A stretch of 64,000 nucleotides of DNA, from NCBI GenBank assembly GCA_965237715.1, contig CBDEGM010000002.1, positions 565,836 through 629,835 on the forward strand. Reading direction: 5' to 3'. The notes beneath the pieces are model-generated. The model made no database searches. It was not told where the DNA came from and saw nothing but the letters and a program-made list of their open reading frames with translations. The translations under genes and the position numbers were made by a program. This stretch comes from Acidobacteriota bacterium. Lineage in GTDB: Bacteria > Acidobacteriota > UBA6911 > RPQK01 > CBDEGM01. Shown in pieces: positions 37,901 through 63,347 of the stretch (positions are counted from its first letter, which is position 1; each line of letters begins with the position of its first letter).

Positions 37901-39827
37901 GCCTGCATTTCTCATCACTGCTCGTCACGAAGACACTCGTGTCAAGCGGCGGAAGGGCCGGCCTGGCAGCGTGAGCGGCGCCTTCGAGATCGGTGCGAAT
38001 CAACCAACGCTGTCCATCCCAATCCATTTGCACGGAACGTACTTGGGAGAGCTCGTGCATGAGCGTGGGCCAGGAAACCTGGACCTTTTTTCCGATCCAG
38101 ACACCGTTGCAAATCCACCTCCAGACGCAGGGCCAGAAAACAGGGCACAATGTGGCCCAGACTCGTATCATCCCGCTGGTGGAAGATGGGCCGCACTTCC
38201 AGGGTGGATTTCTCCTCCCGGAAGGTTCTCTCCACTCGCCACAGCGATTTGTAACTTTGGGCCACCTCCTCGGCCGACAATCCAGTGCTCGTCTTTAAAA
38301 CGAACTTCCCATCGAGCCGAGTATCGGCCTGGATCGCCTCCGGATCGATCTGAGCAGCTCCTTTTTCCATGCGAAGAAAACGAGCAAAGCCTCGATTGCC
38401 AAGGATCGCCTTGGGTCCCCGAGCCAAGGTCTCCTCCAGTTTTTCCACCAGCGCTTGCCGAGCCGCCGCATCCCTGCGGGCCTCCTCCGCATTGCGGCAC
38501 ACGATATAGCGTCGGTCCTCGACCCTCACCTCTTTGACCTCCAGGTTGCCGGCTACTTTGTGATAGCGTCCTGCGCGAGCGAGCACCTCCTGGGAGACTT
38601 CCTTCTGCCTTCGCATCCGACAACCCACAATGTAGTCAAACGGGGCTTTACGGTCCTCGGTGAGAAAGTCCAAAATCTTTGCAGAGATCATCCCCCGGTC
38701 CGCCACGATGATGACCCGGCGCACTTTCAAACGGGAGCGCAAAGCGCTGACGATTTTCAGCAAGGCCTTCGTATCGGCCGTATTGCCGGGAAAGAGCTCC
38801 CAGGCCACGGGCCAGCCTTGCCGGTCGACCGCCACGCACAGCACCATCTGGGGCAAGTCCGGGCGCCGCTCCCGGGAATAGCCCCGTCGCCGCAGCGCCG
38901 TCTCCCTCTCCCGATAGACGTAAAACGAGGTGGTATCTACAAAGAGCACATCCAATTGCTGGCCAAAAAGATCCCGGTCGCGGTCAAAAAGGGCCTTCTC
39001 CAAGCGCTCGCGCTCCTCGGCCAGCCATTGAACCGTTCGATACAGGTGTTGCAGCTCGATGGGCTCCAAGCCCGGGGATTGCACCGTCTTCACCCACTGG
39101 GAACCGAAAAGATCCGAGCCCGGGTGACAGAGCCGTTGCAAGGCCAAAGCAAAGACGACTCGCTCCACATCAAACTGAAATTGCCTTCCCTCGGCCAGTT
39201 GCCCCAGGATTTCCGGCAATCCCTGTCGCTGCCAGAGTCGACCGAAGACCAACGGCGGTCCCCACAGGCGCGTCTGGCAAGAATCGACTCGAGGAGCCTG
39301 AGCCGCAGAAAGGACGCGCAGGTTTTCCGAGAAGCGAGCCAGACTTCGCACGAGGCGATCCACTTGACCGTCGGCCGTGAGCAGACCCAAACGGCCCAGG
39401 TTGGCGATGACGCGATGTTTGGGTTTGCCCTGCTCTCGATAAGACTCTACGACCTGGAGATAATCATGGGGATGTTTCTTGTTGCCGCCACGCTTAATCC
39501 TAACAAAAATCGGGACATTATAAAACACATCCCCGACAATAAATCGCCTTTGTATGGCACTACAATTTCAACAAAAACGACCCGAAATCCACACAACTTA
39601 TTGATTTTACTCGACTTAATCTTTTGAATGCCCTTGAAACTGTCGAAGATCAGTCAAGCGGCGGAAGGGCCGGCCTGACAAGGCGCGCGACCGAGGCCCC
39701 CGCAGGCGTACTCGTGCAGTACGTCGAGGAGGCTGACGGAGCGCAACGCAGTCAGGACGGATGATTTCTTCACTTCGCTCAGGTGAAGGCGACGCCGATG
39801 CAGTAGAGCGGTGATGAGAAATGCAGG
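37901..39827 (-). mobile_element. Second MITE copy (inverted) split by IS1634
   Basis: 37901-37965 and 39654-39827 together match the reverse complement of 26902-27117. Confidence 0.88.
37966..39653 (-). mobile_element. IS1634-family element; transposase about 39528-37966, frameshifted near 38090 and 3'-truncated
   Basis: YLQVVESYR, FVDTTS, RRGYSRERRPDLPQ, VADRGM, DGKFVL, YKSLWRVERTFR; probable terminus CTGATCTTCGACA at 39653. Confidence 0.9.
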
Positions 39828-42220: not shown

Positions 42221-42310
42221 GGAGGAGTGGCCGAGTGGCTGAAGGCGGCGGTCTTGAAAACCGCTGTACCGGCAACGGTACCGTGGGTTCGAATCCTACC
42301 TCCTCCGCCA
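42221..42310 (+). tRNA. tRNA-Ser(UGA)
   Basis: GGAGGAG/CCTCC acceptor stem, anticodon loop CTTGAAA, long variable arm, GTTCGAATC, encoded CCA. Confidence 0.97.
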
Positions 42311-42570
42311 CCCACTTATCTCGTTGATATTACTGCGTTATTCTCAATTCTCTAACCAGATTTGTCTTCAATTTTCAGGCGTTTACGGGCACTTTGGCAA
42401 TGGACCTCCATTGAAAGAGACGCGTCGTTGCGGTGTGGCGCGCCGTTTCTGCGCCATCGTCTCCCGAGCCCTTTTCAGTGGTCCGTCTTTTCGACGTCCA
42501 AAACGGTTGACGCAGCTCTCTACGACCTGCATCCAGCGACAGAACCGGCCGGCTTACGATGGATCAGAGG

Positions 42571-44322
42571 TCAAGCGTGCTTGAACCCAAGCCGCTTTCG
42601 CTGGGCTTCCCACCTGAACGGCAGGCGGGTGTTCTTCATGAGCGTGTTCGCGGTCAGCCCAGGCGGTTGCCGACCGTCGATGATTGCCGTGACGATGTCC
42701 GGGGCAAGGTAGGCAAGCCGCAGCAACCGGGTGACATAGGAGGGTGAGACGCCTTCGGCCTCGGCGATCCGCTGCAGGGCGAGATCGGGGTCTTGCTCCA
42801 ATCGATCCTGGATGGCGAAGGCGCGCAGCAGCAGCCGGATCAGGCCCGGGGCGCACTTGGCATTGTTGCGGGCGCCGGGGACGACTAGTTTCATGCCCGT
42901 GCCAGCGCGCTCAAGGGCGCTTGGAATATCCAGGATGATCGGATGTTTGGCTGGCTGAGCGTCCTGCCTCGATCTTTTTATTGAGACGGCGTCCGGTCCT
43001 GCCAGGAGGGTGGCCAGGGCCCGCTCGCCGTCGATCTCGATCACGACGCGGGCGGACTCGACGATCACCCGCCGGAGAAGCGCATTGAGATAGGCCTTGG
43101 CCTGGTGCGGTTTCAGCTCAGGCCACCGGTCCGCGAGCGATTGCGCCTGGGTGATCAAGCTGGCATGAGCCGATGCCTCTCGAGGGTCTCCATCGATGAC
43201 AGCGCTGATCGCGGCCGCATCAGCGAGCCAGTCCCTGAGATGGACGGTAACGAGGCCTTCGAGATCCGCCGCCGGGAGGCGCCACCCCTTGCGGCCGGCT
43301 CGCTTGCCCTCGAGGATGAGATGGCGGGAGACGTAGTAGCGGTAGCGCCGTCCCTTCTTGACGGCATGGCTGGGTGAGAGGCCCTCGCCCTGCTCGTCAA
43401 CGGCAAGCCCCGTCAGCAGGCTCGGTTGCCGGGTCCCTTCCCGGCGCTCGCCGTTCGTGTTGGCGGCCAGGGTGGCTTGAACCTCATCCCACAGCGCTTC
43501 ATCGACAATGGCCTCATGCTGGCCGGGATAGGCCTTGTCCTTGTGGACCATCTCGCCCCGGTAGAGGCGATTGTGGAGCAGGTGATAAAGCGCCCCGCGG
43601 TTGATGGGTTTGCCGCCGGCAATACTGCCGTCGCGCCTCACTCGCCGCTTGCTGGCGACGCCTTCGGCGGCGAGCCGGCCGCGCAGTTCACGCACGGATT
43701 CGATCTCCCGGTACTGGCGGAAGATAGACCGGACCGTTTCGGCCCCGGCCTCGTTGACGATGAGCTCTTTGTCCTTCACATCGTAGCCCAAGGGCGGGTT
43801 GCCGCCCATCCACATCCCCTTCCTCTTCGAGGCGGCGATCTTGTCGCGGATGCGTTCGCCCGTGACCTCGCGCTCGAACTGGGCGAAGGAGAGCAGGACG
43901 TTCAAGGTCAGACGCCCCATCGAGGTGGTGGTGTTGAACTGCTGGGTGACGGAGACGAAGGAGACCGCTTTTCGATCAAAAATCTCCACAAGCCGGGCAA
44001 AATCCGACAGCGTCCGGGTCAGCCGGTCGACCTTGTAGACGACGATCGTGTCGATCCGCCCGGCCTCGACATCGGCGAGCAGGCGTTGCAACGCCGGCCG
44101 CTCCAGGGTGGCGCCGGAGACGCCGCCATCGTCGTAAAAAGTGGGCAGCACGATCCAGCCCTCGTGCTTCTGGCTCGCGATATAGGCCTCGCAGGCCTCC
44201 CGCTGCGCCTGCAGCGAGTTGAAGTCCTGCTCGAGGCCTTCTTCGGAGGATTTGCGGGTGTAGATGGCGCAGCGCACCGTGGCCAGACTCCTCGCCCGTG
44301 GTGATTTCCGATGCTCAGTCAT
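42571..44322 (-). CDS. Large serine recombinase
   Basis: CAIYTRKSS catalytic Ser, ERPALQRLL, VYKVDRLTR, recombinase and zinc-ribbon-like regions, C-terminal HTH. Confidence 0.93.
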   Translation of the reverse strand: MTEHRKSPRARSLATVRCAIYTRKSSEEGLEQDFNSLQAQREACEAYIASQKHEGWIVLPTFYDDGGVSGATLERPALQRLLADVEAGRIDTIVVYKVDRLTRTLSDFARLVEIFDRKAVSFVSVTQQFNTTTSMGRLTLNVLLSFAQFEREVTGERIRDKIAASKRKGMWMGGNPPLGYDVKDKELIVNEAGAETVRSIFRQYREIESVRELRGRLAAEGVASKRRVRRDGSIAGGKPINRGALYHLLHNRLYRGEMVHKDKAYPGQHEAIVDEALWDEVQATLAANTNGERREGTRQPSLLTGLAVDEQGEGLSPSHAVKKGRRYRYYVSRHLILEGKRAGRKGWRLPAADLEGLVTVHLRDWLADAAAISAVIDGDPREASAHASLITQAQSLADRWPELKPHQAKAYLNALLRRVIVESARVVIEIDGERALATLLAGPDAVSIKRSRQDAQPAKHPIILDIPSALERAGTGMKLVVPGARNNAKCAPGLIRLLLRAFAIQDRLEQDPDLALQRIAEAEGVSPSYVTRLLRLAYLAPDIVTAIIDGRQPPGLTANTLMKNTRLPFRWEAQRKRLGFKHA

Positions 44323-44806
44323 GCTCCGCCGCCGATGCGCTCTCGCCTGAAGGCCGCAGGCCGAAGAAGCGGGGACCGGACCAGTGCGCGCCCGTGATGC
44401 GTTGGGCGATAGCGGTCAAGGAACCATAGGCCTCCCCGTCGTAATCGAAGCCGCTTTCGGTCGCGGTGACGACATGGGTGCGGCCTCGCCATTCGCGCAC
44501 CAGCCGTGTGCCGGGGCACACCTTGGTGCCGTTGCCGGGGGCGACCCGGCCGGTCTCGGCGAAGGCCTGGGCCAGGGCCCGAAGCCGCCGCCGCGCCGCC
44601 TTGGAGAGCCCTCCGTGGACCTGTTCCTGGAGCTTATAGGCGATGCCGCGCATCAGCAGGTCACGGCTGAGCCGCCGGGGCGGGGGCGCCCGGTAATGGC
44701 GCCGCCATGCATCGCGCAGCGATGGCAGGTCCATCTCCTGGATCTCGGTCATCCGGGTCTCGATCGCCGGCACCTCGTGGCCTCCTCCGGGCAGGCTCGT
44801 CATCAA
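44315..44806 (-). CDS. DUF2924-family protein
   Basis: AYKLQEQVHGGL, PGTRLVREWRG, SLTAIAQRITGAHWSGPRFFGL. Confidence 0.85.
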   Translation of the reverse strand: MMTSLPGGGHEVPAIETRMTEIQEMDLPSLRDAWRRHYRAPPPRRLSRDLLMRGIAYKLQEQVHGGLSKAARRRLRALAQAFAETGRVAPGNGTKVCPGTRLVREWRGRTHVVTATESGFDYDGEAYGSLTAIAQRITGAHWSGPRFFGLRPSGESASAAEHD

Positions 44807-44995
44807 TGATTGCCGCCCGGGTCACCTCCATTGACGCTCCGTTGCCCGGTGGAAGTCCAGTCCGAAAGTGAAGATCGATCGTGCTGGGGGAGGATGGACG
44901 ACCGGACCAACACGTCTGAGGCGAACTCCCTCCCCCGGACCGCCGCCTCAACACGCTCATCGTCGTCAGAAACAGCGGGTTTCAGAACGTTGGAG

Positions 44996-46429
44996 TCAAC
45001 CCTCCATGGGTACCAGGATGGGAGCCACGGTGGAGATCCGGCGGTGCCTGCGTTGCCGGCCCCGCTGCCAACCGAGAAACTGCGTGACGCTGTCGACCTG
45101 ATCGTCGTGCCGGCTGTTGGGAAAGGCGAGCAGCTCGTTGAGAAACTCGCCCAGCCAGGGCGCGTGCCTGGGAAGGATGACTCGTCCCGACTCGAAATCC
45201 GTCAATTGAGCCTCGGTGCGCGACAGCTTGTCGCCCTCCGGCTGAATGCCGATGGGAGCCGGCACACACGCGTCGCCGTTGTGGCGCAGCTCCTGAACCA
45301 AGTGCAGCCCCGGCCCCGCCTTTTCGATCAGGATCGTGTTTACGCGTTGAGCCAGGGCCCGCTGGACGATGGCGCGCTTGACGCCCGGATAACCCAGCTG
45401 GCTGCGCCACACCTCGACCAGGTAGCAGGTTTGCCGGTGCACCGCCCAGGTCGTGCACACAGAGTAATCGCTGCTCTTGTTGACCGTCGTGGCCACGTCC
45501 CAGCTTTGCACGATCTGCCAGCCGGTGTCCCGCTCCGGTAGCTGGTCGTAGTACTTCAGCCATTCTCTTTTGATCAGATTGCCCTCATGGGGCACGGGTC
45601 TTTGCTGGTATTGCGCGGAAAAGGTGAGACTACCGACTTCCTCCTTGATGCGCATCAGCGTCTGAAGCGATTCCCGCCCGGGATGGAGCACATCGCCGCG
45701 CTTGCGATCGCGGGTATGTTCCGGCCCCAGGGCGATCGATTGGTCCTCCTCGGCGATGGCCGGAAGATTCAAATGATGCCGATCGCCGCTTTGAAGCAAA
45801 TGGCCGGCGAGATCGTCCTCGTGCAGCCGCTGCACGAGGACGATCATCACATCGCGCGCCTTGTCGTTGAGGCGGGAGACCAGGGCCGTCGTATACCATT
45901 CGTTGACATCGTCGCGGACGGTCTTGGAGCTGGCGTCCCCGGCCTTGAGCGGATCGTCGACAATAATCATGTCCGCGCCCCGTCCGGTCAGGGTGCCGCC
46001 GATGGAGGTCGCCAGGCGGCCCCCGCCCGCGGTGGTCACGCACTCGGTCCCTGCGTCTTTGCTAAGCCGCGTGCCCGGAAAAAGGGCGCGGTACCAGCCG
46101 CTGTTGACGACCTGCCGGAATTGCCGGGCCAGCGCGGCCGCCAGGGCGTCGGAATAGCTCACGCAGATGAAGCGCAGCTTGGGGTTGCGGCCCAAGGCCC
46201 AGGCCACGAAAGCGACGGATGCGCAGATCGATTTCAGGGAGCGGGGCGGTTGCGTGATGATCAGGCGCCGGCACTGGCGATCCGAGCAACGGCCCAATTG
46301 ATAGGCGATGGCTTCAATGTGCCAGTTGTGCCGGTATCTGTCCTCCGGCGAGACCGTCTGGAACGCTTTCTGGATGAACGCCGCCAGATCCGACCGCATC
46401 GCGGCCGCCAGGACGCTCGCGTCAGGCAT
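44996..46429 (-). CDS. Phage terminase large subunit-like protein
   Basis: IITQPPRSLKS Walker A variant, IIVDDP Walker B, nuclease QSWDVA..SDYS and HDDQVDS. Confidence 0.88.
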   Translation of the reverse strand: MPDASVLAAAMRSDLAAFIQKAFQTVSPEDRYRHNWHIEAIAYQLGRCSDRQCRRLIITQPPRSLKSICASVAFVAWALGRNPKLRFICVSYSDALAAALARQFRQVVNSGWYRALFPGTRLSKDAGTECVTTAGGGRLATSIGGTLTGRGADMIIVDDPLKAGDASSKTVRDDVNEWYTTALVSRLNDKARDVMIVLVQRLHEDDLAGHLLQSGDRHHLNLPAIAEEDQSIALGPEHTRDRKRGDVLHPGRESLQTLMRIKEEVGSLTFSAQYQQRPVPHEGNLIKREWLKYYDQLPERDTGWQIVQSWDVATTVNKSSDYSVCTTWAVHRQTCYLVEVWRSQLGYPGVKRAIVQRALAQRVNTILIEKAGPGLHLVQELRHNGDACVPAPIGIQPEGDKLSRTEAQLTDFESGRVILPRHAPWLGEFLNELLAFPNSRHDDQVDSVTQFLGWQRGRQRRHRRISTVAPILVPMEG

Positions 46430-46835
46430 CGCCGGGCTGCTCCGGTTCGTTCGCTTCAGCATTTGTCCCCTGACGCAAAACCCGCTCTCGGTAGTTTTCG
46501 AGAATCTCTTGATCCGGCGCGCCCAATACGCCGGCGGCGGCCGTGGCCAGCTCTTCCGCGTTGTAGGTTTGCGCGAGCGTCACCACGAGATCCAGCGATC
46601 GGGCATCCCCCTTGAGCGCCTTCTCACGCAAGCGCAGGAGCACCCCTTCTTGGGTCGACACGGTCTGCGGCTTGCCATCCTTGACAAGCCGAATGGGGGT
46701 CTCAAGCGTCTTTTTCACGTCGCTCTTGAAGTTGCGCGCCTTGGCGGGACGGCCCTTGGGATTGCCCGATTGGCCGGGCTTGAACCGCGTTGTCTTGGGC
46801 GGTCTGCGGTAGCCGACTTCGTACTCTCCAGCCAT
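46422..46835 (-). CDS. DUF5681-family protein (candidate small terminase)
   Basis: YEVGYRRPP..TRFKPGQSGNPKGRP; overlaps the terL start. Confidence 0.82.
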   Translation of the reverse strand: MAGEYEVGYRRPPKTTRFKPGQSGNPKGRPAKARNFKSDVKKTLETPIRLVKDGKPQTVSTQEGVLLRLREKALKGDARSLDLVVTLAQTYNAEELATAAAGVLGAPDQEILENYRERVLRQGTNAEANEPEQPGDA

Positions 46836-46837
46836 CG

Positions 46838-48232
46838 TCATGAATCCGTTGCATTTTGTCGGGAGGTGTCGGCCGGCCGGCGGCTTGGCCGAATCTCGGC
46901 GAAGGCCGCCCCGCTGGCAGCGTGAACCACAGAGTGACCGGTCAGCCGCTCGTAGCGCTCGATGGCGACGTCGACGTGCTTTGGGTCCAGCTCGATGCCG
47001 AACCCGCGCCGCCCGGTGCGCTCGGCCGCGATCAACGTCGAGCCCGAGCCGGCGAAGCCATCCAGTACGATTCCGCCGCGTCTCGAGCAATCCCTGATCG
47101 CGTCGGCGATCATCGCCACCGGCTTGACCGTCGGATGCAGAGCGAGATCGTCCAGACGGTCCGGCCCCCACGCATTGACGCCCGCATACTCCCAAACGTT
47201 GGTCCGGTTCCGCCCGTGGCGGCCCAGCTCGACGTTGTTGATGTGGGGCGCCGCGCCATGCTTGAAAACGAAGACCAGTTCGTGCCGCGAACGGTAGAGC
47301 GAACCCATACCGCCGTTGGTCTTGCTCCAAACGCACAGATTCTTGAGCTCCGAATAGACCGATTGGCCGGCCGCGAGCACCTCGCCGAGATGACGCCAGT
47401 CCATGCACACATAGTGGATCGAGCCATCGCGGCTATGCTCGGCAAGGTTTCGAAACGTTTTCCCCAGAAAATCCGTATAGGCCCGCTCGGACATCTCGCC
47501 CGAGGCCATGACGAACTCTCCATGGCGCGCCTGGCCTCTGCCGCAGACGTTGCCGCGGATCGGCACGTTGTAGGGCGGGTCGGTGAAAACCAGCCCGGCC
47601 TTCTCCCCGCCCAGCAGCCGCTCGAACACAGAAGGATCCCTGGCGTCGGCGCACAGCAACCGGTGGGCCCCCAGGCGCCACAGGTCGCCGATGCGCGAAA
47701 CCGGCGGCTCGTCGTCGATAGCGGGCAGCTTGTCGGCCGGATCCGTCTCTTCGCCCGACCGCGCCTCATCGAGTAGGAGATCGATCTCGGCCGTCTCAAA
47801 ACCGGTGAGCGTGACGTCGAAACCCAGCGTCAGGTCCGTCAGGAACCGAAGCTCCTCGGTTAACAGCTCGCTGTCCCACCCGGCGTTCTCCGCCAGCTTG
47901 TTGTCCGCGATGACGTAAGCGCGCTTTTGCGCCTCGGTCAGGTCGCCAATGCGGATCGTGGGAACCTGACGGATGCCCAGCAACTTCGCCGCCTCCAGCC
48001 GCCCATGCCCGGCCATCACGCTTCCCTTCTCGTCGACCAAGATCGGGTTGGTGAAACCGAACGCGCGGATGCTGTCGGCGATCTGCCGGATCTGCCGTTT
48101 ACTATGGGTCCGCGGATTGCGCGCGTCAGGCTGGAGGGCCGATATCGCCTGAAAGGTGACCGTTGGCCGGCTGGGGGCGCAATCGGACGCCGGGCGCGTC
48201 GGGGCTCCCGCTTTCGCTGTTTCCTTCATCAA
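46838..48232 (-). CDS. ParB/Srx N-terminal domain fused to an N4/N6 DNA methyltransferase
   Basis: GFTNPILVD..AGHGRLEAA..IADNKL; FTDPPY; HPTVKP; LDGFAGSGST. Confidence 0.9.
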   Translation of the reverse strand: MMKETAKAGAPTRPASDCAPSRPTVTFQAISALQPDARNPRTHSKRQIRQIADSIRAFGFTNPILVDEKGSVMAGHGRLEAAKLLGIRQVPTIRIGDLTEAQKRAYVIADNKLAENAGWDSELLTEELRFLTDLTLGFDVTLTGFETAEIDLLLDEARSGEETDPADKLPAIDDEPPVSRIGDLWRLGAHRLLCADARDPSVFERLLGGEKAGLVFTDPPYNVPIRGNVCGRGQARHGEFVMASGEMSERAYTDFLGKTFRNLAEHSRDGSIHYVCMDWRHLGEVLAAGQSVYSELKNLCVWSKTNGGMGSLYRSRHELVFVFKHGAAPHINNVELGRHGRNRTNVWEYAGVNAWGPDRLDDLALHPTVKPVAMIADAIRDCSRRGGIVLDGFAGSGSTLIAAERTGRRGFGIELDPKHVDVAIERYERLTGHSVVHAASGAAFAEIRPSRRPADTSRQNATDS

Positions 48233-48380
48233 AAACCTCTATCGAGATCTATGAACACCCCGCCAGATCTTCCTACCTGCATTCATTGCTCTTCCTCCTA
48301 ATGGGTTCACGTCGTCGTTGCATCCTTAGCGGCCGCTAGAGTCCCGATGGACCGAGGCGGCCGCCCTTCTGATCGCATCC

Positions 48381-48421
48381 TCCATTATAACACGCCATAC
48401 CGCTGATCCGCTGTCTAGCGT
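48381..48421 (-). promoter_or_regulatory. Candidate promoter and operator for the MTase-terminase operon
   Basis: Extended -10 TGtTATAAT (hexamer 48384-48389, minus strand); GATCCGCTGtcTAGCGT at 48405-48421 matches 49509-49525. Confidence 0.5.
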
Positions 48422-48438
48422 ATTATCATGCCAAAAAA

Positions 48439-49140
48439 CTAAACGAACAAACCAGGAACCGCCGTCTTGACCAATATTCGCCGCTGTTCCAGTCGCACTC
48501 GTGCAGCCTCGAGGGACACGTGAAACGCCGCCGCGATGCGGTCGATCATGGCCTGCCCGGCCTCCGATCCGACGGCTATGTTGCTGTACATGAGGCCTTC
48601 GGTGGCACGGAACGCCCGGACAACCCGCACATGTTCGGTTCTTGGCATCAACAACGCCCCACAGGCGTACCCCGCCTGCCATTCCATCCAGTCGCTGCTG
48701 GGCGCGACGATCGCCTCTCTGTGACAGGTGTTGCGTGTTTTCCGCGGCTCGCCCGCGAACAACCTTCCGAGTCCGTCCTCCAGAGCGAACAGGAAGCCGT
48801 GCACAAGCACGTGGCCGCATTCGTGCGTGAGTGTCGCGCGAAGGCGATTTTCGTAATTGGGTGCCTGTAGACGACTGGCGATCTTGACGTGCGGCTTCCT
48901 TCGCGGGAAGAAATCCGTCAACCCGTCGACACCGTCCTCGAGCACGCAGCCATTGTCCAGATCGTCGACCTCCCGCTCAAGGAGGACCGTGAGGTCGTCA
49001 GTGCTGGCCGGGAAGGCCACCCTGCCGTGACGGTCCCACAGAAAGCGAGTCATCGTATCCTCACAGAGCTGTTCGAGCTCGTCGGGATGGTAGTGTGGTC
49101 GCTCTCGAAACCGCCCGGAGTTGTCACGCACCCATTTCAC
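48439..49140 (-). CDS. ImmA/IrrE-family metallopeptidase (anti-repressor)
   Basis: RLRATLTHECGH (HExxH), EWQA..ACGALLMP, FHVSLEAARVRL. Confidence 0.9.
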   Translation of the reverse strand: MKWVRDNSGRFRERPHYHPDELEQLCEDTMTRFLWDRHGRVAFPASTDDLTVLLEREVDDLDNGCVLEDGVDGLTDFFPRRKPHVKIASRLQAPNYENRLRATLTHECGHVLVHGFLFALEDGLGRLFAGEPRKTRNTCHREAIVAPSSDWMEWQAGYACGALLMPRTEHVRVVRAFRATEGLMYSNIAVGSEAGQAMIDRIAAAFHVSLEAARVRLEQRRILVKTAVPGLFV

Positions 49141-49164
49141 GGCGATACTCCTTTGATCTCGGAT

Positions 49165-49497
49165 TCATGTCTTGTCCTTGAGCACCTTCCGAAAAGCAGT
49201 GAAGGCCTTCTCGACTCGCTGCGGGTCAGACCCCGGGAGCTTCTCCCGCAGGTCCGTTGGCCAGAGACCCGCCGCGGCGATCAGATGCTCCTTCGAGAGC
49301 CCCAAATGTCCTGCGAGCTGCTCGATGATGTACTCCGACGGCGGATTTCGCCGGTCGTGTTCGATGTCGTTGAGATACTGCGGCGAGATCGCACCCCCGC
49401 CTCCTTTACGTGTTCTCGCCGCCAATTCCTTCTGGCTCATGCCGAGCGCCTTGCGCGCGTCCGCAATGATCCGGCCGAATGTGCTCAAGTGTCCCAT
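49165..49497 (-). CDS. XRE-family HTH repressor (ImmR-like)
   Basis: ARKALGMSQKELA...ISPQYLNDIEHDRRNP; directly upstream of the ImmA-like gene. Confidence 0.9.
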   Translation of the reverse strand: MGHLSTFGRIIADARKALGMSQKELAARTRKGGGGAISPQYLNDIEHDRRNPPSEYIIEQLAGHLGLSKEHLIAAAGLWPTDLREKLPGSDPQRVEKAFTAFRKVLKDKT

Positions 49498-49707
49498 GCC
49501 CCGCTGGCGATCCGCTGATTAGCGTGTAACGCTTGCGGCGCCCTGTCAAGTCCCCCTCGCACAACTCAAGCTGGGGTCTGGACCATTCAGCGAAGCGATG
49601 AGGACCTTTTTTGACATGAACGACGAGTACGTGTATCCGGAAACTGTACCGGCCCCAAAGTTCGAATACACACTTTTCCACAACCGCTACGGATTGGACT
49701 TCGAAGA

Positions 49708-50130
49708 CGCGTTGTTACATGGATCGGGGCGGAGATGAAATTCCCCCTTTCCCAAAGCCGTAGCGTCAGGCGATGCGTTTGAACACGTGCCGTCCGAGTG
49801 CGGTCATTGTGTTCAGGACTTTCTGGCCGACCTTGATCTCCGTGATTTGCCTGGAGAAGCTGCGGGATTTGAGCTTGGGGCCGTTGACGCTCTTCCAACA
49901 GCCGATGCTGCGTTTCTATCCGGCTGCGCTGGTTGTACCCTGTGGCCACTTGCCAGGCCATGCGGCCGTTGCTGCGGATCTGGGCAATGTGGCGATCCCG
50001 AACGGTCGGATCACTGCGCGCGGTATAACCACATCCAGGGTCTCCCCATACCCATGCCTTAGCATATCCCGTGTGGACGCTCCATCATAGGCGCCGTCAG
50101 CCAGAAAGCCCGTGACCGGGGCATCCAATC
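49708..50130 (-). pseudogene. Degenerate IS5-family (IS903-like) transposase 3' fragment with one terminal repeat
   Basis: ADGAYD, VIP, TGYNQRSRIET; end CGCGTTGTTACAT resembles the TIR at 57655. Confidence 0.7.
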
Positions 50131-50344: not shown

Positions 50345-52306
50345 CTATTCCCGATCCATCCTCTCTTTCACCGGCACTACCGGCAGTGTTGTAAAGAGCT
50401 GGTTGCTGGCATCGAGTTCCACGGCCACTCCGGTGAACATCCCCTCCCCTGGCGCGGTGCAGCGCACCGACCCCGCGAAATCGGACGTATCGGTGCGGGG
50501 GAACATCTGCTCGATGTACTGGGCGTCCTGCCCGTTGACCTCCAGCGGGATGGCCACCTCTTCGAGCACAATGCCCCCGCTCATCAACCGGTAACTCACC
50601 CCCAGGGCTTCCTCTCCCAGGTTGTGGATCGCCGCCGCGGTGCTGATTCCCCCCACCTGGCGGCGGGTCGGGAAGATGGCGTCCCTTACGGGTTGGCTGG
50701 CTCCCACCCCGGCCACCCCGATGCCGGGCAGGCCGAAGCGCAGGACCCCGCCGATGGGACCGTCCGAGACCACCTTCACTGATCCGCTCACCACCTCCCC
50801 ACGGCCGTGGGTCGAAATCGTGAGTTCGCCTAACGGTTCCATGGCCGTCCGCACGCTCAGGGCACCGTCTTCCAGGATCTCCAGATCCGGTGTGACATCC
50901 ACCACCGACCGGACGGCAATGGGTTCGCCTTCCTGGTCGTAGAAGTGGAGGGCGGGCCGGATCGGATGGGGGGCTACATTCACGAGCACGATCCCGGAGG
51001 TGATGCCGGTCCCATTGGCGAAATGCGCAAAGTCCAGGGTGCGCTCGCGAAACGGGACCCCAACCGACCATACCTTGGCGCCTCCGGCTCCGAAGCTGGC
51101 GATCCGGGGATCGTCAGGCGAGAACACGATGCCGCTGCCGCGCCCGCCGCCGCCTGGGAGAATCGTCAGCAAATCGCCGGTCAGGGCATCCCACATCCAG
51201 GTTGTCCCGTCTGGACTCACACCTGCCAGGCGCAGCCCATCCTGGGAGAATGCAGCATAGGAGAAAGGTGCTCTATGTCCTTCCAGCGTGAGCAGTTCCC
51301 CACCGGTACGGGCGTCCCAGACGCGCAACACGCGGTTGCGGCCGTCGTACGTCACCACTCGTCTGCCGTCCGGGGAGAATCTTGCGCCGCCCCGTCTACC
51401 GGCTGTCTCCAGGTCGGCAAGCTCCGCGCCTGTTTTTGCGTTCCACACCTAGACCCTGCGTTCGGGAAACTGTCCGTCAATGGTGAGCAGCAACGAGCCA
51501 TCGGGGGATTCTTCCACGTAGACGACGCCCTTTTCAAAAGTCAGGGAGTGCAGGATTTCGCCCGACACCCAATCTAAAACTGTTGCCCCGTTGTTCGAAG
51601 CAATCAGCAAGCGTACTCCGTCGTAGGACCAGGACACATGCCTGTACTCCGTGTACTCCGCTCTGTCCGGATCAAGTTCCAACGGCTCCGAGGCGATATT
51701 GTCAAGGTTCCAAACCGTGATGAAAGAGCTCACCGCGGCGAGGCGCCGGCCATCCGGAGACCAGGCCGGCGGAACGGACTTGGCTGTCGAGCGTAATCCC
51801 GGTTCCGCCCTGTGTTGCATGGTCCCAGAGTTCGAGTACATTGAAGGACTGCGAATCCGAGATCGTAAGAAAGCGGTCTCCACGGGGGGGGAATACGACA
51901 CATGTTCGACGGGGCGTCTGGGCGGCCTCAAGCGAGAAACCGGTTCAACGCGTTCCGGCAACTCGTAGAGTTGAACGCCCGTCTCTGCGTCCCAGACCCT
52001 GACAGAGCCGTCTCTACCCGAAGTGACGATGTGGGTCCCATCGGGCGAGTAATCCAGCGAGAGCACTGTTCCGCGTTGGTGGCCCTCGAAGCGGGCCACT
52101 TCCCGGCCTGTGGCTCTCTCCCAGACGATTGCCCTGCCGTCAGCACCGGCAGTCGCGAATTGGCTCCCGTCCCAGGACCAATCCACGGTCAAGACGTAGT
52201 TGAGAAAGATGTCGATATCCAGCAACTGCATTCCCGTTTCGACGTCCCAGACCTTCGCAGTTCGGTCCAGTCCCACGCTGGCGAGGTAGCGCCCTTCCGG
52301 CGAAAA
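50345..52306 (-). pseudogene. WD40-repeat protein with the conserved ~230-aa C-terminal domain; in-frame TAG at 51449-51451; 5' end truncated by a MITE
   Basis: Repeated SPDG...VWDAETG blades; ORFs 51449-52276 and 50345-51448 share a frame; C-terminus LDFAHFANG...FTTLPVVPV. Confidence 0.8.
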
Positions 52307-52436
52307 GGTACTGTCAAGTTAAGTGGAATTCTCGGGTTTTGGAGGCGAAATCGGTCGTCGGTCGAACGTAGAATCAACAACTTAGGGACTTGCCAAGGCG
52401 CTGATTAGGCACCAAATCGGTTAACTTGACAGTACC
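52307..52436. mobile_element. 130-bp MITE with 16-bp perfect TIRs
   Basis: GGTACTGTCAAGTTAA ... TTAACTTGACAGTACC; no target duplication. Confidence 0.88.
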
Positions 52437-53025
52437 GCTCGTCGGGCTTTCGCTCGTTCCACCAAAATGCGGCACGGTCGGCCACTAGCGAACTTACGCG
52501 GGCTTCGCCGTGCTTATCCTCATAAATCATTGAGACGGTGCAACCGAACAGCCGACGCATTTGGTTGCGGAGCCGGGTGCGAACACCCGTCGCCCCGCCG
52601 CTGTCGCTGCTAAGGATACCGAGCGTCCGCATGAACTCAGAGAGCGAACGGCCCAGGACGAGCTCGCGGCTTCCCGTCCGTACCACTTCGGTACAGAGCC
52701 AGGCCAGGAGCAGCCGGGGGAAGTTGCCGTAGGGGAGTTTGTAGCCTGGACCTGACTGCATATAGAGCGTGAAGGGGCCGTTGACGCGCTTGTATTCTTT
52801 CCGGTTGCCAGGGTTGGTGCGCGGGAGGTTGCACAACACTATCATCCGCGCCATGAAGCCGAGATTGGGGTCCGCTTCGCTGGCCCCGACAAGCTGGTGC
52901 ACCTGATCGGCAAGGGTGAAGTGGTGCAACGCCTGGGGCGAGGCTTCGCGGAGCGCCTGGACTTGGCCGGGTAGATCGCCGAAGGCTTCCCCGATCGGAA
53001 CCAAGCCGTCTCGTTTGCTCTGCAT
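52437..53025 (-). pseudogene. Plasmid-type replication protein RepA (RepA_C-like), C-terminally truncated
   Basis: LGFMAR..LP.TNP, LPYGNFPRLLLAWL.TE, LGRSLSEFMR.LG, RLRNQMRRLF; cut at the MITE. Confidence 0.8.
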
Positions 53026-53067: not shown

Positions 53068-56000
53068 TTATTCCTGGGACGGCATCTCTGGAACCGGCAC
53101 CACCGGCAAGGTCGTGAAGATGCGGTTGGCGGCATCCAGCTCCACGGCCACTCCGGTGAACATCCCTTCCCCTGGCGCGGTGCAGCGCACCGACCCCGCA
53201 AAATCGGACGTATCGGCCCCGGTGAACACCTCGTCGATGAACCAGGACGACTGCCCATTGGCCGCAAGGGGAATGCTCTCGGCTTCGAGCACGGTACCCC
53301 CTTGCATCAATTCGCACGTCACCTCCACCGCTTCTTCGCCCGGGTTGTGGATCGCCACCCCGGTGTTGATTCCCCCCGCCTGGCGGCGCACCGGGAAGAG
53401 GGCGTCGTGGACGGGTGAGCTGGCTCCCACCCCGGCCACCCCGACGCCGGGCAGGTCAAAGCGCAGGACCCCGCCGATGGGCTCGTCCGCGATCACCCGC
53501 ACCGATCCGCTCACCAGCGCCCCGCGCCCGTGGGTCGAAATCGTGAGTTCGCCCAGGGGCTCCATTTCCGTCTGGACCGTCAGCCCGCCGTCCTCGGTGA
53601 TCTCCAGATCCCCGGTGATATCCACCACCGATTCGGCGGACACGAGCGCGCCCTCGGTGTCGTAGAAATAAAGAGCGGGGCGCGCCGGAAGGATGTCCGA
53701 ATGAAAGGGGGTGGGCGCGGGACGGCTCCGCTCGGTGGATAGGTTCAGGAACACCAGATCGGAGGTAAGGCCCGCCCCATTGGCGAAATGCGCGAAGTTC
53801 AGCTCCGCCGCCCGGCCTCCGGCGCGCCGCGTCGGAAACACCGGCAGGGTGGTGAAGATGCGGCGGGCGGCATCCAGCTCCAGGGCCACGGCTGTGAACA
53901 TCCCCGGACCCGCTGCATCGCAATGCACCGACCCCGCGAAATCGGACGTATCGGCGGCGGGGAACGCCGCGTCGATGAACCAGGATGACTGCCCGTTGGC
54001 CGCTAGAGGGAGACTCACGGCGTCGTGCAGCACGCCCTCTCGCATCAATTCGCAGCGCACGATTTCCGGGCTCGATTCCAGGTTGTGGATCGCCACCCCG
54101 GTGTTGATTTCCCCCGCCTGGCGGCGCACCGGGAAGAGGGCGTCCCTCACGGGTGAGCTGGCTCCCACCCCGGCCACCCCGATATCCGGGAGATCAAAGC
54201 GCAGGACTCCGCCGATGGCCCCGAACGCGACCACCCGCGCCGATCCACTCACCAGCTCCCCTTGGCCGTGGGTCGAGATCGTGAGTTCTCCCAGCGGCTC
54301 CATCGCCGTCTGGATGCTCAGGCTGCCGTCCTCTTGGATCTCCAGATCGCCCGTGATGTCCACCACCGATTCGGCGGCAATGAGATTCCCCTCTTTATCG
54401 TAGAAGTAGAGGGCGGGACGGATCGGCTGGGTCCCCACATTTAGGAACACCAGATCGGAGGTAAGGCCATCGCCGTTGGCGAAATGCGCAAAGTCCAGGG
54501 TAAACACTTCCGGCTTAGCCTCGCCCCGGTTGGAAGAGGCACTCCCGCCCGCCGCGTTGACCGCCCGCACCTCGAAGACGTAGACCGTGCCATTGACGAG
54601 TCCGGTAACCGTATGGGTGGTTTGGGTGGAACCGGTGGAGATCCAGGGATCACTCCTGTTGATCCGGTATTCGTAATCCGTGATCTCCGCCCCGCCGTCG
54701 CTCGCCGGAGCGTCCCAACTCAGCACGACCTCACCGTTCCCGCCCACCACCGTCAGGTTCGTCGGCGCGCCGGGCACGGACGTTGTCGGTACGCCACCAC
54801 CGCCTGGAGGTCCGGGTGGTGGAGGTGGCGGAGAGGGCGGGTCAGGCGGTGGTGGATCAGGAGGAGGAGGCGGGGGCGGGGTGACCGTCTCAGTGGCACC
54901 CCCGAAGACCCAGGGGCGGGCCTGCTTGATCGCCAGGATGTCGGCACTCGTGATCTTGAACTCGATCTCCATGGCGAACGGCTCATCAGGGGCGGGGTTG
55001 TACAGCCCTTCGAAGTGGGCATGGATCACCTCAAGATGCGCTCTCAACTGGCGCAGTTGGTCGTCGCTCATGAGGAGCTGCCCCGGCTCCACCAGGTTGG
55101 AGGTCGCCAGGATGGTGTAATTACCTACCGATCTCAACAAGAGTTCCTCCGGCACCGAGTACTCTTCGGGATTGGTGACCAGATCCTCGCCGAGTTGCGT
55201 GTTGACGTAGTAGATCCCGTCACTGCCGTAGATGGGGTCAAAGCTGACGCCCACGCCGTTGGCCAACTCGTCCGAGTAGTTGGGATGCACCAGCACCCCC
55301 ATCGCCGCCGCCAGGTGATCGATCCGATAGAAGTCCCGTTCGGTGAAAGCCCGGAAGGTCCACAGGCTGGCCCACACCCCTTTGATGGATTTGTCGATGC
55401 CATCCTCCTCGGTCTCGTCGGGATGCTGGGTCTTGGAGTCGTACAGGCCCGCCCCGTTGAACCCCGGCAGGTCTTCGTTGTTGGTGCTGGACCGGTAGCG
55501 CAGCGAGGTCCCCTCGGGAAACATCGCGTGCATGGCGGTCAGCGCCTCGATGATCCAGGCGGGCGTCTCCGCGTCCTTGATGGCGTCGCGGAGATCATCG
55601 AGCCTGTCATCCTGGGTTTCGAAGTCCGTCTGGAAATCTTCGTCGGCCAGCATCTCCTTGACGTCGTCATAGAATCCGTGGGCCTTCATGAACTCGTCGT
55701 AGAAATAGAACGGGATCGCAAATCCGTCGGGGACGGTCCCCTCCGGAAAACCCAGCGTCCCCAGCACGGCCAGGTTGGCCGCCTTGACCCCGAACGTCTT
55801 CCAGTCCTCGAAACCGATCTGACTGAGGGGGGTGATCGACGTGACCGAGAGGTTCCGTTGCGGTGTCTGTTCTTCGGTGGGCCGGGAGGACTCGTAGTGC
55901 GCGTCCACTTCCTCGGGTGTGGCCATGCGCAGCGACCAGCCCGCAGCGGTCACCTCGTAGCGGACGTACCCGCCGATTAGAGGCGCGATATCCGGGTCGT

Positions 56001-57597
56001 CGAGGGCATCGCGGATGAAGGCGTTGGGGATGCCGTCCTGGACGGCGCGCAGGTTGACGTGCGACAGCGGGGTTTGGGGCACGGCGGAGATGATGCCGGC
56101 GACGCGGGGCAATTCGTTGGGTAGCGCCTCGTAGAGCACGATGTCGCGCGGGTGGGGCCGGTCGTCCGGCTCCAGGGCCTGCAGCCGGCCGTACCCTTCC
56201 CCCGGGTTCAACGCCAGGAAGTTGAATTCGCCGTAAATGTCGACATTGAACACGAGGTCGATCCGGGACTCCCTGAGCAACGGCAACTCGGGCTGTAAAT
56301 CAGGAAGCTGATAGTTTGTGATATGGAAAGTCAGGTTGTCATCGAGAAGCGGCATGCTGGCAGCAAGCAGCGTATAGACGCGGTCCACCAAGACGAAGGA
56401 GGGATTTGCCGTCACCCCAAAATGGAAGATCTGTTCGCTGCCGACCGAGCGATAACTGATCAGGCCGAGAAGAGCCTGATTTCGTTCAATACCCCTGTCA
56501 TCCAGGAAGGTCTGATGGTACGGGTGCTGTTTGGCGTTGATGAAGTAGAGACTCGGCCGGTCGGTGTCCCAGCCCAGCAGAATGAATTTGAAGGTTCTGT
56601 ATATGGCCAGTGTGTCGTATGTCTGCTTGTCGGGAACAGCTAGGGCACCGTCGCTGAGATCGACCGGGGCGGCGGGATTCACCGGGTTCATGCTCACTGG
56701 GTCCCCCAGTTCGGTGATGTCGTCGATGCAGTCGCCGTCGCCGTCGGCCGGGTCGGTGATCTGGTACTTCTCCACCCGATAACGCTCTTTCGGCAGCGCC
56801 TCCACGTTCTCGGATAGCGTGGTCGTACCCGCTTCCCCCAGGGTCACCGCGACCGGCAGTTTCACCTCCGTGCGATACAAATCGTGCTGCACATAGAGCA
56901 CGAAGTACTCCTCAGTCGTCGACTGGACCACTATGGGAACGGCCGTCACCGCCGCCACCACCACCGTCGGGTTATAGCCGCCTCCTTCACACGGCTCTTC
57001 AGGGTCGCCGCCCTGGGCGAGGGCGTTTCCGCTCGACAAAAAGACAAGGGAAGCGAGGGCGAAGACGGCGCGCTTGCGCCCGTGGTGGGGGTGGAGCGGG
57101 TTCTGGAAAGCCGCGAAGATGGACCGCAGGACCGCTGGCAACACGGCGAGAAGGACAAGGAGGGTCCGTCCGCACGATAGACATACGGCGGAAGCGGACG
57201 GCGCGCTCGTACGGGCGGGTAGGCTTAGGTCAGAGGTGTAGCGTGGCTCTTGGCTCTTGGCTCTTGGCTCTTGGCTCTTGGCTCTTGGCTCTTGGCTCTT
57301 GGCTCTTGGCTCTTGGCTCTTGGCTCTTGGCTCTTGGCTCTTGGCTCTTGGCTCTTGGCTCTTGGCTCTTGGCTCTTGGCTCTTGGCTCTTGGCTCTTGG
57401 CTCTTGGCTCTTGGCTCTTGGCTCTTGGCTCTTGGCTCTTGGCTCTTGGCTCTTGGCTCTTGGCTCTTGGCTCTTGGCTCTTGGCTCTTGGCTCTTGGCT
57501 CTTGGCTCTTGGCTCTTGGCTCTTGGCTCTTGGCTCTTGGCTCTTGGCTCTTGGCTCTTGGCTCTTGGCTCTTGGCTCTTATGATTTTGTGCGCCAC
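53068..57597 (-). CDS. Large secreted multidomain protein: repeat leader, signal-like segment, phospho-His-like and PEP/pyruvate-binding (PPDK-N) domains, Pro linker, FN3, two copies of the ~230-aa C-terminal domain
   Basis: TPLSHVNLRA; FGVKAANL, VPDGFAIP, RSSTNNEDLPGFNGAGLYDS, IKQARP; LSWDAPASDGG...YVFEVRAVN; true start uncertain. Confidence 0.82.
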   Translation of the reverse strand: MAHKIIRAKSQEPRAKSQEPRAKSQEPRAKSQEPRAKSQEPRAKSQEPRAKSQEPRAKSQEPRAKSQEPRAKSQEPRAKSQEPRAKSQEPRAKSQEPRAKSQEPRAKSQEPRAKSQEPRYTSDLSLPARTSAPSASAVCLSCGRTLLVLLAVLPAVLRSIFAAFQNPLHPHHGRKRAVFALASLVFLSSGNALAQGGDPEEPCEGGGYNPTVVVAAVTAVPIVVQSTTEEYFVLYVQHDLYRTEVKLPVAVTLGEAGTTTLSENVEALPKERYRVEKYQITDPADGDGDCIDDITELGDPVSMNPVNPAAPVDLSDGALAVPDKQTYDTLAIYRTFKFILLGWDTDRPSLYFINAKQHPYHQTFLDDRGIERNQALLGLISYRSVGSEQIFHFGVTANPSFVLVDRVYTLLAASMPLLDDNLTFHITNYQLPDLQPELPLLRESRIDLVFNVDIYGEFNFLALNPGEGYGRLQALEPDDRPHPRDIVLYEALPNELPRVAGIISAVPQTPLSHVNLRAVQDGIPNAFIRDALDDPDIAPLIGGYVRYEVTAAGWSLRMATPEEVDAHYESSRPTEEQTPQRNLSVTSITPLSQIGFEDWKTFGVKAANLAVLGTLGFPEGTVPDGFAIPFYFYDEFMKAHGFYDDVKEMLADEDFQTDFETQDDRLDDLRDAIKDAETPAWIIEALTAMHAMFPEGTSLRYRSSTNNEDLPGFNGAGLYDSKTQHPDETEEDGIDKSIKGVWASLWTFRAFTERDFYRIDHLAAAMGVLVHPNYSDELANGVGVSFDPIYGSDGIYYVNTQLGEDLVTNPEEYSVPEELLLRSVGNYTILATSNLVEPGQLLMSDDQLRQLRAHLEVIHAHFEGLYNPAPDEPFAMEIEFKITSADILAIKQARPWVFGGATETVTPPPPPPPDPPPPDPPSPPPPPPGPPGGGGVPTTSVPGAPTNLTVVGGNGEVVLSWDAPASDGGAEITDYEYRINRSDPWISTGSTQTTHTVTGLVNGTVYVFEVRAVNAAGGSASSNRGEAKPEVFTLDFAHFANGDGLTSDLVFLNVGTQPIRPALYFYDKEGNLIAAESVVDITGDLEIQEDGSLSIQTAMEPLGELTISTHGQGELVSGSARVVAFGAIGGVLRFDLPDIGVAGVGASSPVRDALFPVRRQAGEINTGVAIHNLESSPEIVRCELMREGVLHDAVSLPLAANGQSSWFIDAAFPAADTSDFAGSVHCDAAGPGMFTAVALELDAARRIFTTLPVFPTRRAGGRAAELNFAHFANGAGLTSDLVFLNLSTERSRPAPTPFHSDILPARPALYFYDTEGALVSAESVVDITGDLEITEDGGLTVQTEMEPLGELTISTHGRGALVSGSVRVIADEPIGGVLRFDLPGVGVAGVGASSPVHDALFPVRRQAGGINTGVAIHNPGEEAVEVTCELMQGGTVLEAESIPLAANGQSSWFIDEVFTGADTSDFAGSVRCTAPGEGMFTGVAVELDAANRIFTTLPVVPVPEMPSQE
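57245..57580. repeat. Perfect tandem heptamer (GGCTCTT)x48, 336 bp
   Basis: Counted directly; reads SQEPRAK on the minus strand. Confidence 0.98.
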
Positions 57598-57654: not shown

Positions 57655-58729
57655 CGCGTTGTTGCACAAATCGCTTCGGCACGTCCGCTTGTCTCCGATG
57701 GGCCAGGGTGCCAGCATGAGGAATGACGCCGAATCAATACACGTTCCGGTACCGAGTACGCAACTGGTCAGACTACAATCGGGCGCTGATCGCCAGGGGG
57801 CGTCTGACCTTTTGGTTCGATGAGGACGCCGTTGCCGCCTGGCGGAACGCCGACCCGCCCAAGGGCCCCGGCGCTCCGAAGGTTTACTCCGACACGGCCA
57901 TTCAGTGTGCGCTGATATTGAAGTCGGTGTTTCATCTTAGCCTTCGGTCGACGCAGGGCTTCGTTTCTTCGCTCCTGGAGTTGCTCAGACTCGATCTGCC
58001 AGTTCCAGACTACAGCACTCTCAGTAGACGACAGAGTTCCTTGGCGACGTTCTTGACTGTTAGCCCAAGCAGTCGGCCTCGGCACGTGGTTGTGGATGCG
58101 ACGGGCCTGAGAGTGTACGGCTCGGGTGAAGGGCACGTCCGAAAGCATCGACATGGTCGGCGCAGAGCCTGGCGCAAGCTGCACCCGGGTGTCGATGAGA
58201 GGACGAAAGAGATTGTGGCGGTGGAGGTTACACCGAGCCGGGTTCCACGACTGTCGTCTGTTGCCGGCCCTGCTGGATCAGATTCCGGGTCGCATCGTTC
58301 AAGTCTCGGGCGACGGGGCCTATGACACGAGGGCCTGTTATCAATCGATACTCGAGCGGGAGGCTGTCGCCACCATCCCTCCGCGACGCAGTGCGCGGCT
58401 GAGTGAAAGTGTGGACCCGCCTGCCTGGCGGGCAATGCGGGATGCCCATCTACGAGAAATAAGGAGAGACTCGGTCGATATGAATGGCGCATCTCCAGTG
58501 GTTGCACCAGGCAAAGCCTTGCAGAGAATGCGATGTCGAGGTTCAAGACGTTGTTTGGGCCTAAGCTGTCGGCCCGACGATTCGACAATCAACGGGTCGA
58601 GGCCATCATCAAATGTGAGGTGCTGAATCGTATGTCAAGCCGGGGCATGCCTGAGTCAGTGCGAATTCGATAGCATTCAAACAGGACTGGGATCGGTCCG
58701 TGACCCGACCGGATTTGTGCAACAACGCG
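57655..58729 (+). mobile_element. IS5-family (IS903-like) element; transposase 57723-58673 with two frameshifts
   Basis: TIR CGCGTTGTTGCACAAATC at both ends; NWSDYNRAL..RG, PDYSTLSRR, VDATGL, GDGAYD. Confidence 0.92.
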
Positions 58730-62131: not shown

Positions 62132-62205
62132 GGCTCGCCCAATGGTCCCCTTTCCCCTCGCCTTCGATTCTGCCAGATCGGTCCTCGCCGTCAAAGGTCC
62201 AGTGT

Positions 62206-62251
62206 GGACTATAGTCCGTTGTTGGTTTCACCTGAAGACAATAGTCTTCAG
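62206..62251. promoter_or_regulatory. Two C-box-like operator palindromes upstream of the HTH-endonuclease gene
   Basis: GGACTATAGTCC (62206-62217) and CTGAAGACAATAGTCTTCAG (62232-62251). Confidence 0.75.
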
Positions 62252-62254
62252 TTC

Positions 62255-63244: not shown

Positions 63245-63311
63245 CCAAACTGGAGCGCTACGATTGCCAGATCTCCGTGCGACAATCTGGAGCTGTAGGA
63301 CTACCCCAAAG

Positions 63312-63347
63312 TTGACAACCAACATTAATGAGGACTATAGTCTTCAT
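63312..63347 (+). promoter_or_regulatory. MTase promoter with an overlapping operator palindrome
   Basis: TTGACA 63312-63317, TATAGT 63336-63341 lying inside ATGAGGACTATAGTCTTCAT (63328-63347). Confidence 0.72.

Follow-up and report, generated by a model that had tools for sequence, protein, structure and literature searches.

What would an intact phage packaging motor do in a bacterial chromosome when no gene for a virus particle lies beside it? The question is raised by a 64,000-nucleotide stretch of contig CBDEGM010000002.1 of Acidobacteriota bacterium GCA_965237715.1 (hereafter the window; own genome, 4 contigs, 5.29 Mb), in which a tRNA-Ser gene adjoins seven genes that include a large serine recombinase and a terminase large subunit (TerL). 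Based on homology, this unit is a mobile element rather than a dead prophage. The interpretation that we rank first, with a probability of roughly 0.45, is an integrative mobile element of ~6-7.5 kb that resembles phage satellites and packages itself. Packaging into helper capsids, excision and self-methylation are proposed functions within this interpretation, and its main rival is a cargo module with a role in defence or addiction. The features of the unit are as follows.

42221..42310, plus strand: tRNA-Ser(TGA), predicted by ARAGORN; left arm of the attachment site, with the 3' end rebuilt by the element
42302..42311, no strand: crossover zone, a C-CGCCA-C stretch common to every junction type
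42311..42570, no strand: non-coding element arm from the crossover to the recombinase stop codon; kept in all copies, in two sequence subtypes
42571..44322, minus strand: large serine recombinase, 583 aa (Pfam Resolvase, E 2.1e-39, and Recombinase, E 2.3e-13)
44315..44806, minus strand: DUF2924 protein, 163 aa (Pfam E 6.9e-47); constant partner of the recombinase
44996..46462, minus strand: TerL, 488 aa (Terminase_6C, E 1.3e-11; PHROG 38, E 1.3e-104)
46422..46841, minus strand: DUF5681 protein, 139 aa (Pfam E 8.2e-19); candidate small terminase subunit by position
46838..48232, minus strand: ParB_N-domain N6/N4 DNA methyltransferase, 464 aa (Pfam ParB_N and N6_N4 methylase)
48439..49140, minus strand: M78 (ImmA/IrrE-like) metallopeptidase (Pfam E 3.8e-5; HEXXH in the translation); variant-specific
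49165..49497, minus strand: XRE-family HTH regulator (Pfam HTH_3, E 8.2e-10); variant-specific
49498..49708, no strand: leader region upstream of XRE, the last stretch common to element copies alone

As the original prediction held, the seven genes are intact and co-directional: they occupy minus-strand positions 42571-49497 and are free of internal stops. By their coordinates, recombinase and DUF2924 overlap by 8 nt, TerL and DUF5681 by 41 nt, and DUF5681 and methylase by 4 nt (ATGA, the DUF5681 start meeting the methylase stop), given that the true DUF5681 start is the ATG at 46841 and not the longest-ORF (open reading frame) start at 47408. The gaps among the seven genes are 189, 206 and 24 nt, and the tRNA-Ser(TGA) gene ends at 42310, 260 nt past the recombinase stop codon.

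TerL matches PHROG 38 ('terminase large subunit') over residues 13-471, nearly its whole length, and sequence motifs place an N-terminal ATPase (Walker A/B) ahead of a C-terminal RNase-H-like nuclease, the architecture of a large subunit. The columns TQPPRSLKS, GAD-IIVDDP, SWD and HDDQVD are invariant in 26 homologues of 55-80% identity. We set aside a 35-nt perfect palindrome in terL (45811-45845) as mostly a by-product of the IVLVQRLHEDD codons; close copies retain 16 of its 17 pairs and relatives 6-13. Several shortened element copies break near this palindrome.

A TerL profile search of one-genome-per-species contigs yielded at least 461 loci, and we surveyed the best 80 (TerL 43-97% identical), which lie mostly in Alphaproteobacteria, also in Acidobacteriota, and in a few others. 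In these genome loci the methylase is upstream of terL in 68 cases, DUF5681 directly upstream in 71, the position of a small terminase subunit, and both precede terL in 66; in 32, a homologous large serine recombinase is no more than 10 kb away. Surveyed isolates with a recombinase match include Pseudohoeflea coraliihabitans DP4N28-3 and Sphingomonas sp. CD22, and those with the trio only include Parvibaculum indicum DSM 25305 and Bosea thiooxidans DSM 9653. The DUF5681 structure model has a predicted local distance difference test (pLDDT) score of 85, and a protein atlas search with DUF5681 returned DUF5681 clusters only. The methylase matches a PADLOC type II MTase model (E 4.1e-92). No restriction-enzyme family was matched in the unit, whose sole nuclease, besides the ParB_N domain, is that of TerL. 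A ParB-fused methylase upstream of terminase genes is the 'ParB-Tls locus' of phages (PMC6536676), and phage contigs in IMG/VR with 29-35% TerL identity likewise carry a ParB-methylase upstream. This common layout suggests that the methylase-DUF5681-TerL trio is of phage origin.

Virion genes do not accompany the trio. The window, as originally predicted, contains no portal, capsid, tail, primase or conjugation family among the 53 ORFs scanned, and the same pattern extends to the relatives. All-against-all clustering of 1489 ORFs from the 80 loci gave conserved clusters of TerL (75), methylase (61), DUF5681 (49), recombinase (27), DUF2924 (22), ABC ATPases (12) and DUF3489 (11), and no portal or capsid cluster. 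The 4.5 kb that follow terL at the 80 loci contain 59 large same-strand ORFs, of which one matched a portal family, and that ORF is truncated; as a control, the same procedure found a portal in 13 of 16 phage-like IMG/VR loci (TerL 29-35% identity). The set of portal, capsid and tail genes that would stand beside the terminase in a tailed-phage prophage was found neither at the window nor at related loci, and the 31 ORFs surrounding a copy in the relative G011 include no portal or capsid. All 30 IMG/VR contigs with a TerL identity of at least 39% are only 4.1-12.8 kb long and correspond to this element: the trio occurs in 28 and the recombinase in 24, in co-directional or divergent layouts. 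In a FastTree phylogeny, TerL proteins of this kind group together in one clade (101 rows, support 99) and the phage-like contigs fall outside it; the window's group is nested among alphaproteobacterial rows. These comparisons show that a predicted methylase-DUF5681-TerL module without virion genes is conserved across phyla. The family is widespread and apparently undescribed; we found no description of the five-gene element in the literature searched, supplementary files lying outside that search.

Is such a module still under selection? Comparing the window with six or seven near-identical copies and scoring every distinct substitution a single time, we obtained ratios of non-synonymous to synonymous change (omega) of ~0.46 for the recombinase, 0.47 for DUF2924, 0.53 for TerL and 0.37 for the methylase, each with a synonymous excess at p < 0.01 (terL, binomial p 0.0065). 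Thus, terL is under purifying rather than relaxed selection. The original prediction had named two outcomes that would point instead to a decayed prophage, namely homologous modules sitting usually in full prophages and relaxed selection on terL; neither is seen, since the modules lack virion genes and terL is constrained.

The original prediction described a 7-kb island and overlooked its repetition in the genome. Instead of one copy, we find a modular multi-copy family with ~16 recombinase loci in the own genome, three of them with the whole trio and several with a truncated or deleted terL. The three full-length terL copies encode proteins of 100, 98 and 97% identity; there are additionally five partial matches of 47-283 residues and three of 27 residues. 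By blastn, one 7441-bp copy is 99.2% identical (window 42302-49740) and one 5879-bp copy 97.7% identical (window 42302-48180). Many further copies consist of recombinase and DUF2924 alone (42302 to ~44870, 82-98% identity), and in at least six copies the homology of this cassette breaks at ~44870-44885. In the derivatives at C4:1646k, C4:2477k, C4:2427k and in G011 (L187), terL has been lost with ~80 nt of its 3' end left; what these derivatives retain is a DUF5681 remnant and a methylase of 59-76% identity. Outside the own genome, TerL occurs at 95-97% identity in 4 of 40 same-order relatives, each from a different family, and these four match the window over 4.5-7.8 kb at 96-97.5% DNA identity. 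Judged by these identities, the element has multiplied within its own genome and has moved recently between families.

The recombinase belongs by its Resolvase and Recombinase domains and a YTRKSS serine motif to the large-serine class, and it matches the PHROG 95 integrase (E 6.9e-101). DUF2924 adjoins it in 27 of the 80 genome loci and in 23 of the 30 small IMG/VR contigs. The DUF2924 model (pLDDT 81) has a helical N-domain and a small beta C-domain, and its fold search gave no significant match; a directionality factor is the candidate role put forward in the original prediction. The family is reported to overlap the RAMA DNA-binding domain (PMC11342252).

Every copy starts at window position 42302-42311, within the 3' strand of the tRNA acceptor plus CCA. 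The own genome has 17 left ends, of which 14 border on a 368-bp repeat and three on tRNA-Ser genes (TGA, GGA and a truncated TGA). Recombinase copies of the relatives that lack the 368-bp repeat all border on a tRNA-Ser gene, giving five such junctions: two in G011 (GGA, GCT), two in G015 (TGA, GGA) and one in G013 (GCT). The L028 genome adds one more (GGA). Integration at tRNA-Ser, as claimed originally, is thus documented by nine junctions (TGA, GGA, GCT) in five genomes, each of which leaves a complete tRNA. The habit extends to more distant members of the family: of the 31 recombinase loci that have 700 nt or more past the stop codon, 14 point at a tRNA 3' end at a distance of 30-470 nt (seven Ser, the others Ala, Val, Met, Gln and Ile). 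Together, the junctions show insertion by the recombinase at the 3' ends of tRNA-Ser genes or at a mimic that resembles a tRNA, with the tRNA end rebuilt.

What, then, is the 368-bp repeat? It ends in a tRNA-like GGTTCG...CCACCGCCA (e.g. C4:1725603-1725970; G011 L020:6959-7277) and contains at least five TTCCCTGTTC-like iterations, and most of its copies are occupied by recombinase elements. It has no Rfam match. We rejected the idea that the repeat completes the element's attachment site as its second half, because solo repeats in G000, G011 and G013 end exactly at CCACCGCCA and then diverge, because G015 has tRNA-linked copies and no 368-bp repeat, and because the window itself is without one. 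From the way the solo repeats end, the 368-bp repeat is more likely a secondary target that mimics a tRNA.

The other end of the element is less regular. The protease-inducible XRE/ImmA switch, originally put forward as part of the element, does not extend to the family: the M78 peptidase is present in the window, at C4:1725k and in G011 only, and homologues of the window's XRE or M78 proteins occur in 0 of the 80 genome loci and 0 of 80 IMG/VR loci. In sister copies (C4:1919k, G015) the XRE/M78 region is replaced by other sequence, and copies that lack it and have a different upstream region diverge at ~48262. By these comparisons the pair is a feature of one variant and not of the family. 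A PADLOC scan gave weak CapP/CapH matches for the pair. The right boundary had been placed at 49525, and homology to other copies runs on beyond it, to 49741 in the 99% copy at C4:1725k and to 50062 in G011. A search of 12 related loci and of 43 kb of the own contig found no direct repeat of the tRNA 3' end on the far side. Just beyond the leader lie two features that the original prediction also overlooked.

49709..50125, minus strand: IS5-like terminal fragment (IS, insertion sequence), whose 33-nt end motif occurs at 5 places with different left contexts
52405..53025, minus strand: RepA_C plasmid-replication homologue (Pfam E 1.5e-15)

The IS5-like fragment apparently marks the unsettled right limit of the element. 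RepA_C homologues adjoin DUF2924 and recombinase in other copies (C2:465k, C4:2526k), and the one in the window may be part of a wider island.

How could these genes work together? In the window variant, a stress or phage signal would lead the M78 peptidase to inactivate the XRE repressor, and a single operon would then be expressed from XRE through the recombinase. The recombinase, aided by DUF2924, would excise the element, and the methylase would mark its DNA. DUF5681, acting as the small terminase subunit, would bring TerL to a pac site, and TerL would pump the element DNA into the procapsids of a helper phage. The element would accordingly represent a phage satellite with its own complete terminase. 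We consider it possible, with less assurance, that five-gene capsid-less satellites of this kind load themselves into the heads of unrelated helper phages, spread between families and even phyla, and are widespread and unrecognised.

Several observations weigh against self-packaging. Many own-genome copies lack terL, and 48 of the 80 surveyed loci have no serine recombinase within 10 kb while their terL match is uninterrupted, so that a benefit unrelated to self-transfer is possible. The 7.4-kb unit has no replication gene. The Walker A motif of TerL is deviant (LKS, against GKS in the solved TerL 8dgc). For the proposal that DUF5681 is the small terminase subunit (TerS), position upstream of terL speaks in favour and structure does not: its model found no significant small-terminase fold (Foldseek best E 0.47; the best small-terminase structural match is NV1, Z 3.4, at rank 14). 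Recent copies of DUF5681 also differ by 21 non-synonymous and 3 synonymous changes, in contrast to the constraint on the neighbouring genes, a pattern that could reflect relaxed or diversifying selection on a putative DNA-recognition subunit. No particle, circle or helper was seen. Words of the element occur in 20 listed public runs from 11 studies, and contigs of four of these (2 DNA, 2 RNA) cover it; they contain neither a right-to-left-end circle junction nor an empty-site joint, and the RNA-library contigs cover the element but, as contigs, cannot show transcription. A search with 18 portal/head proteins from related phage contigs, of limited reach, gave no match in the own genome, and the matches of 706 phage ORFs searched against it are element copies only. 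Pfam-family searches of the genome for portal and capsid returned 0 matches, which we do not use, because Terminase_6C (PF17289), present in the window TerL, also returned 0.

The loci with terL and without a recombinase lead to the main rival, which we nevertheless judge unlikely: the recombinase/DUF2924 cassette alone would be mobile, and the trio would be cargo that pays its way as a defence or addiction module. In its defence form, the methylase would mark self DNA and a DUF5681-guided TerL would attack or mis-package invading phage DNA. In a Sphingobium replicon the trio indeed sits among ordinary genes, and the cassette, with its recurrent break at ~44870-44885, carries other cargo, for example RepA_C, in other copies. 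Defence genes are frequent neighbours. A G011 copy (L019/L020) is flanked by a cluster of HEPN-DUF499, DUF1156 methylase and SNF2 helicase and by MazF with a giant DUF4011-AAA-nuclease protein (helicase-nuclease), a setting whose resemblance to a defence island is suggestive; a type I restriction-modification system lies near the L107 copy and a KAP NTPase near the L132 copy. The methylase is also tightly co-inherited with TerL, with a Mantel distance correlation of r 0.70, against r 0.45 for TerL and recombinase (0 of 999 permutations as high). However, TerL, DUF5681, DUF2924 and the recombinase match 0 of 5027 PADLOC models, and true phages use the same trio layout as a packaging module, so that no new function is needed. 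Moreover, loci with and without the recombinase are interspersed in the TerL tree, with at least 15 changes, which fits repeated loss of the recombinase and not a separate lineage adopted by hosts.

More doubtful again is that the terminase acts in place on chromosomal DNA, by headful lateral transduction, by transduction resembling that of gene transfer agents, or in concatemer processing, rather than by packaging an excised monomer. The 7.4-kb unit without a replication gene is far below the usual head size, direct terminal repeats are found in 0 of 80 IMG/VR loci, and lateral transduction by phages and by phage-inducible chromosomal islands (PICIs) is reported in the literature (PMC12829572). 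Capsid genes, on the other hand, were not found in the genome within the reach of the 18 portal/head queries, and nothing in the contigs of the four public runs bears on packaging in situ. The whole unit is nearly identical in different families, which argues that it is the unit that travels. A remnant made of the last genes of a full phage is already largely refuted and very improbable. Some copies are broken (terL frameshifted in L028, recombinase with stops in G039, terL deletions and truncations in the own genome), a few relatives have Erf, RecE or YqaJ genes nearby, and omega values of 0.4-0.5 indicate moderate constraint only. Against a remnant, the same five-gene set recurs across phyla without virion genes, it is multi-copy and recently transferred, the control detects portals where they are present (13 of 16), and the synonymous excess is significant in four of the five genes.

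Positions 1-39.5 kb of the window contain dnaA, dnaN, gyrB, gyrA and other housekeeping genes; G+C is 0.60-0.67 from 42.5 kb to ~58 kb and ~0.54 elsewhere, and the rest of the window also carries IS elements, WD40 proteins and a 1509-aa repeat protein. The last (53068-57597, minus strand) begins with 17 tandem copies of a 7-residue KSQEPRA repeat; behind them come a PPDK_N and an FN3 domain and then three repeats of a C-terminal domain, and this C-terminal domain is also fused to the adjoining WD40 protein (50345-51448). The own genome is very repeat-rich (also at 37942-39528). An IS5-family element at 57655-58729 and a ~130-bp repeat at 52307-52436 resembling a miniature inverted-repeat transposable element each recur dozens of times, and other, unrelated IS families reach 30-100 copies. 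Two more DNA-modification loci occur in the window: an XRE-domain ORF adjoining a C5 cytosine methylase at its end (61544-63999), and an N6_N4 methylase fused to an HNH nuclease (19588-20733).

If the self-packaging element is real, it would account for thousands of 'orphan' terminase genes to which virus-detection tools give a viral score. It also documents recent gene flow between Acidobacteriota families, with the nearest outside relatives in Alphaproteobacteria, and a set of large serine recombinases aimed at tRNA 3' ends (Ser, Ala, Val, Met, Gln) is of interest for genome engineering.

How does the element compare with known systems? Classical PICIs, including the Staphylococcus aureus pathogenicity islands (SaPIs), and PICI-like elements (PLEs) are capsid-less islands that redirect helper packaging under repressor-controlled induction. 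Their own packaging genes amount to a small terminase or a redirecting factor at most, and they rely on the TerL of the helper, whereas a full TerL, its ATPase and nuclease motifs conserved, is encoded here. Regulation of the ICEBs1 ImmR/ImmA type places an XRE repressor beside an M78 peptidase with HEXXH. Here, in contrast, both genes head the same operon as the genes that they presumably control, and neither the sister copies nor any of the 160 surveyed loci have the pair. The AH14b satellite, unlike this element, has no terminase. The recombinase shares its Resolvase and Recombinase domains with Ccr of the staphylococcal cassette chromosome mec (SCCmec), with XisF and with the phage WO module; its weak matches to CcrB and XisF are below their cut-offs, and as all NCBIfam matches are far below cut-off we do not assign it to those equivalogs. 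It differs from them in targeting a tRNA 3' end and in that Zn_ribbon_recom was not matched, a domain that is matched in a second recombinase on L130. For Wolbachia, a WO region is reported to have a DUF2924 gene immediately upstream of the recombinase (PMC10299305). The gene order and domain fusion of the trio are those of the phage 'ParB-Tls' locus, and where phages place a portal after terL (13 of 16 controls), DUF2924 and the recombinase follow here.

The closest comparison is with the capsid-forming PICIs (cfPICIs), which, among the four satellite families described best, are alone in having a terL (PMC10085698). Like a cfPICI, this is a small integrative element with its own terL, a candidate small terminase, a regulator and a presumed dependence on a helper. 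Of the features listed in the satellite models of the same source, integrase and regulator are present; the primase-replicase that the cfPICI models list has no counterpart in the 7.4-kb unit, the RepA_C homologue lying 2.9 kb away. The cfPICIs described there also encode capsid, portal, protease and head-tail connector, none of which we found in this element, and the serine recombinase with its tRNA-Ser target is particular to the latter. Known satellites borrow the TerL of a helper or bring a whole head, and an element that brings the motor only would, if the reading is true, be a new solution to genome hijacking.

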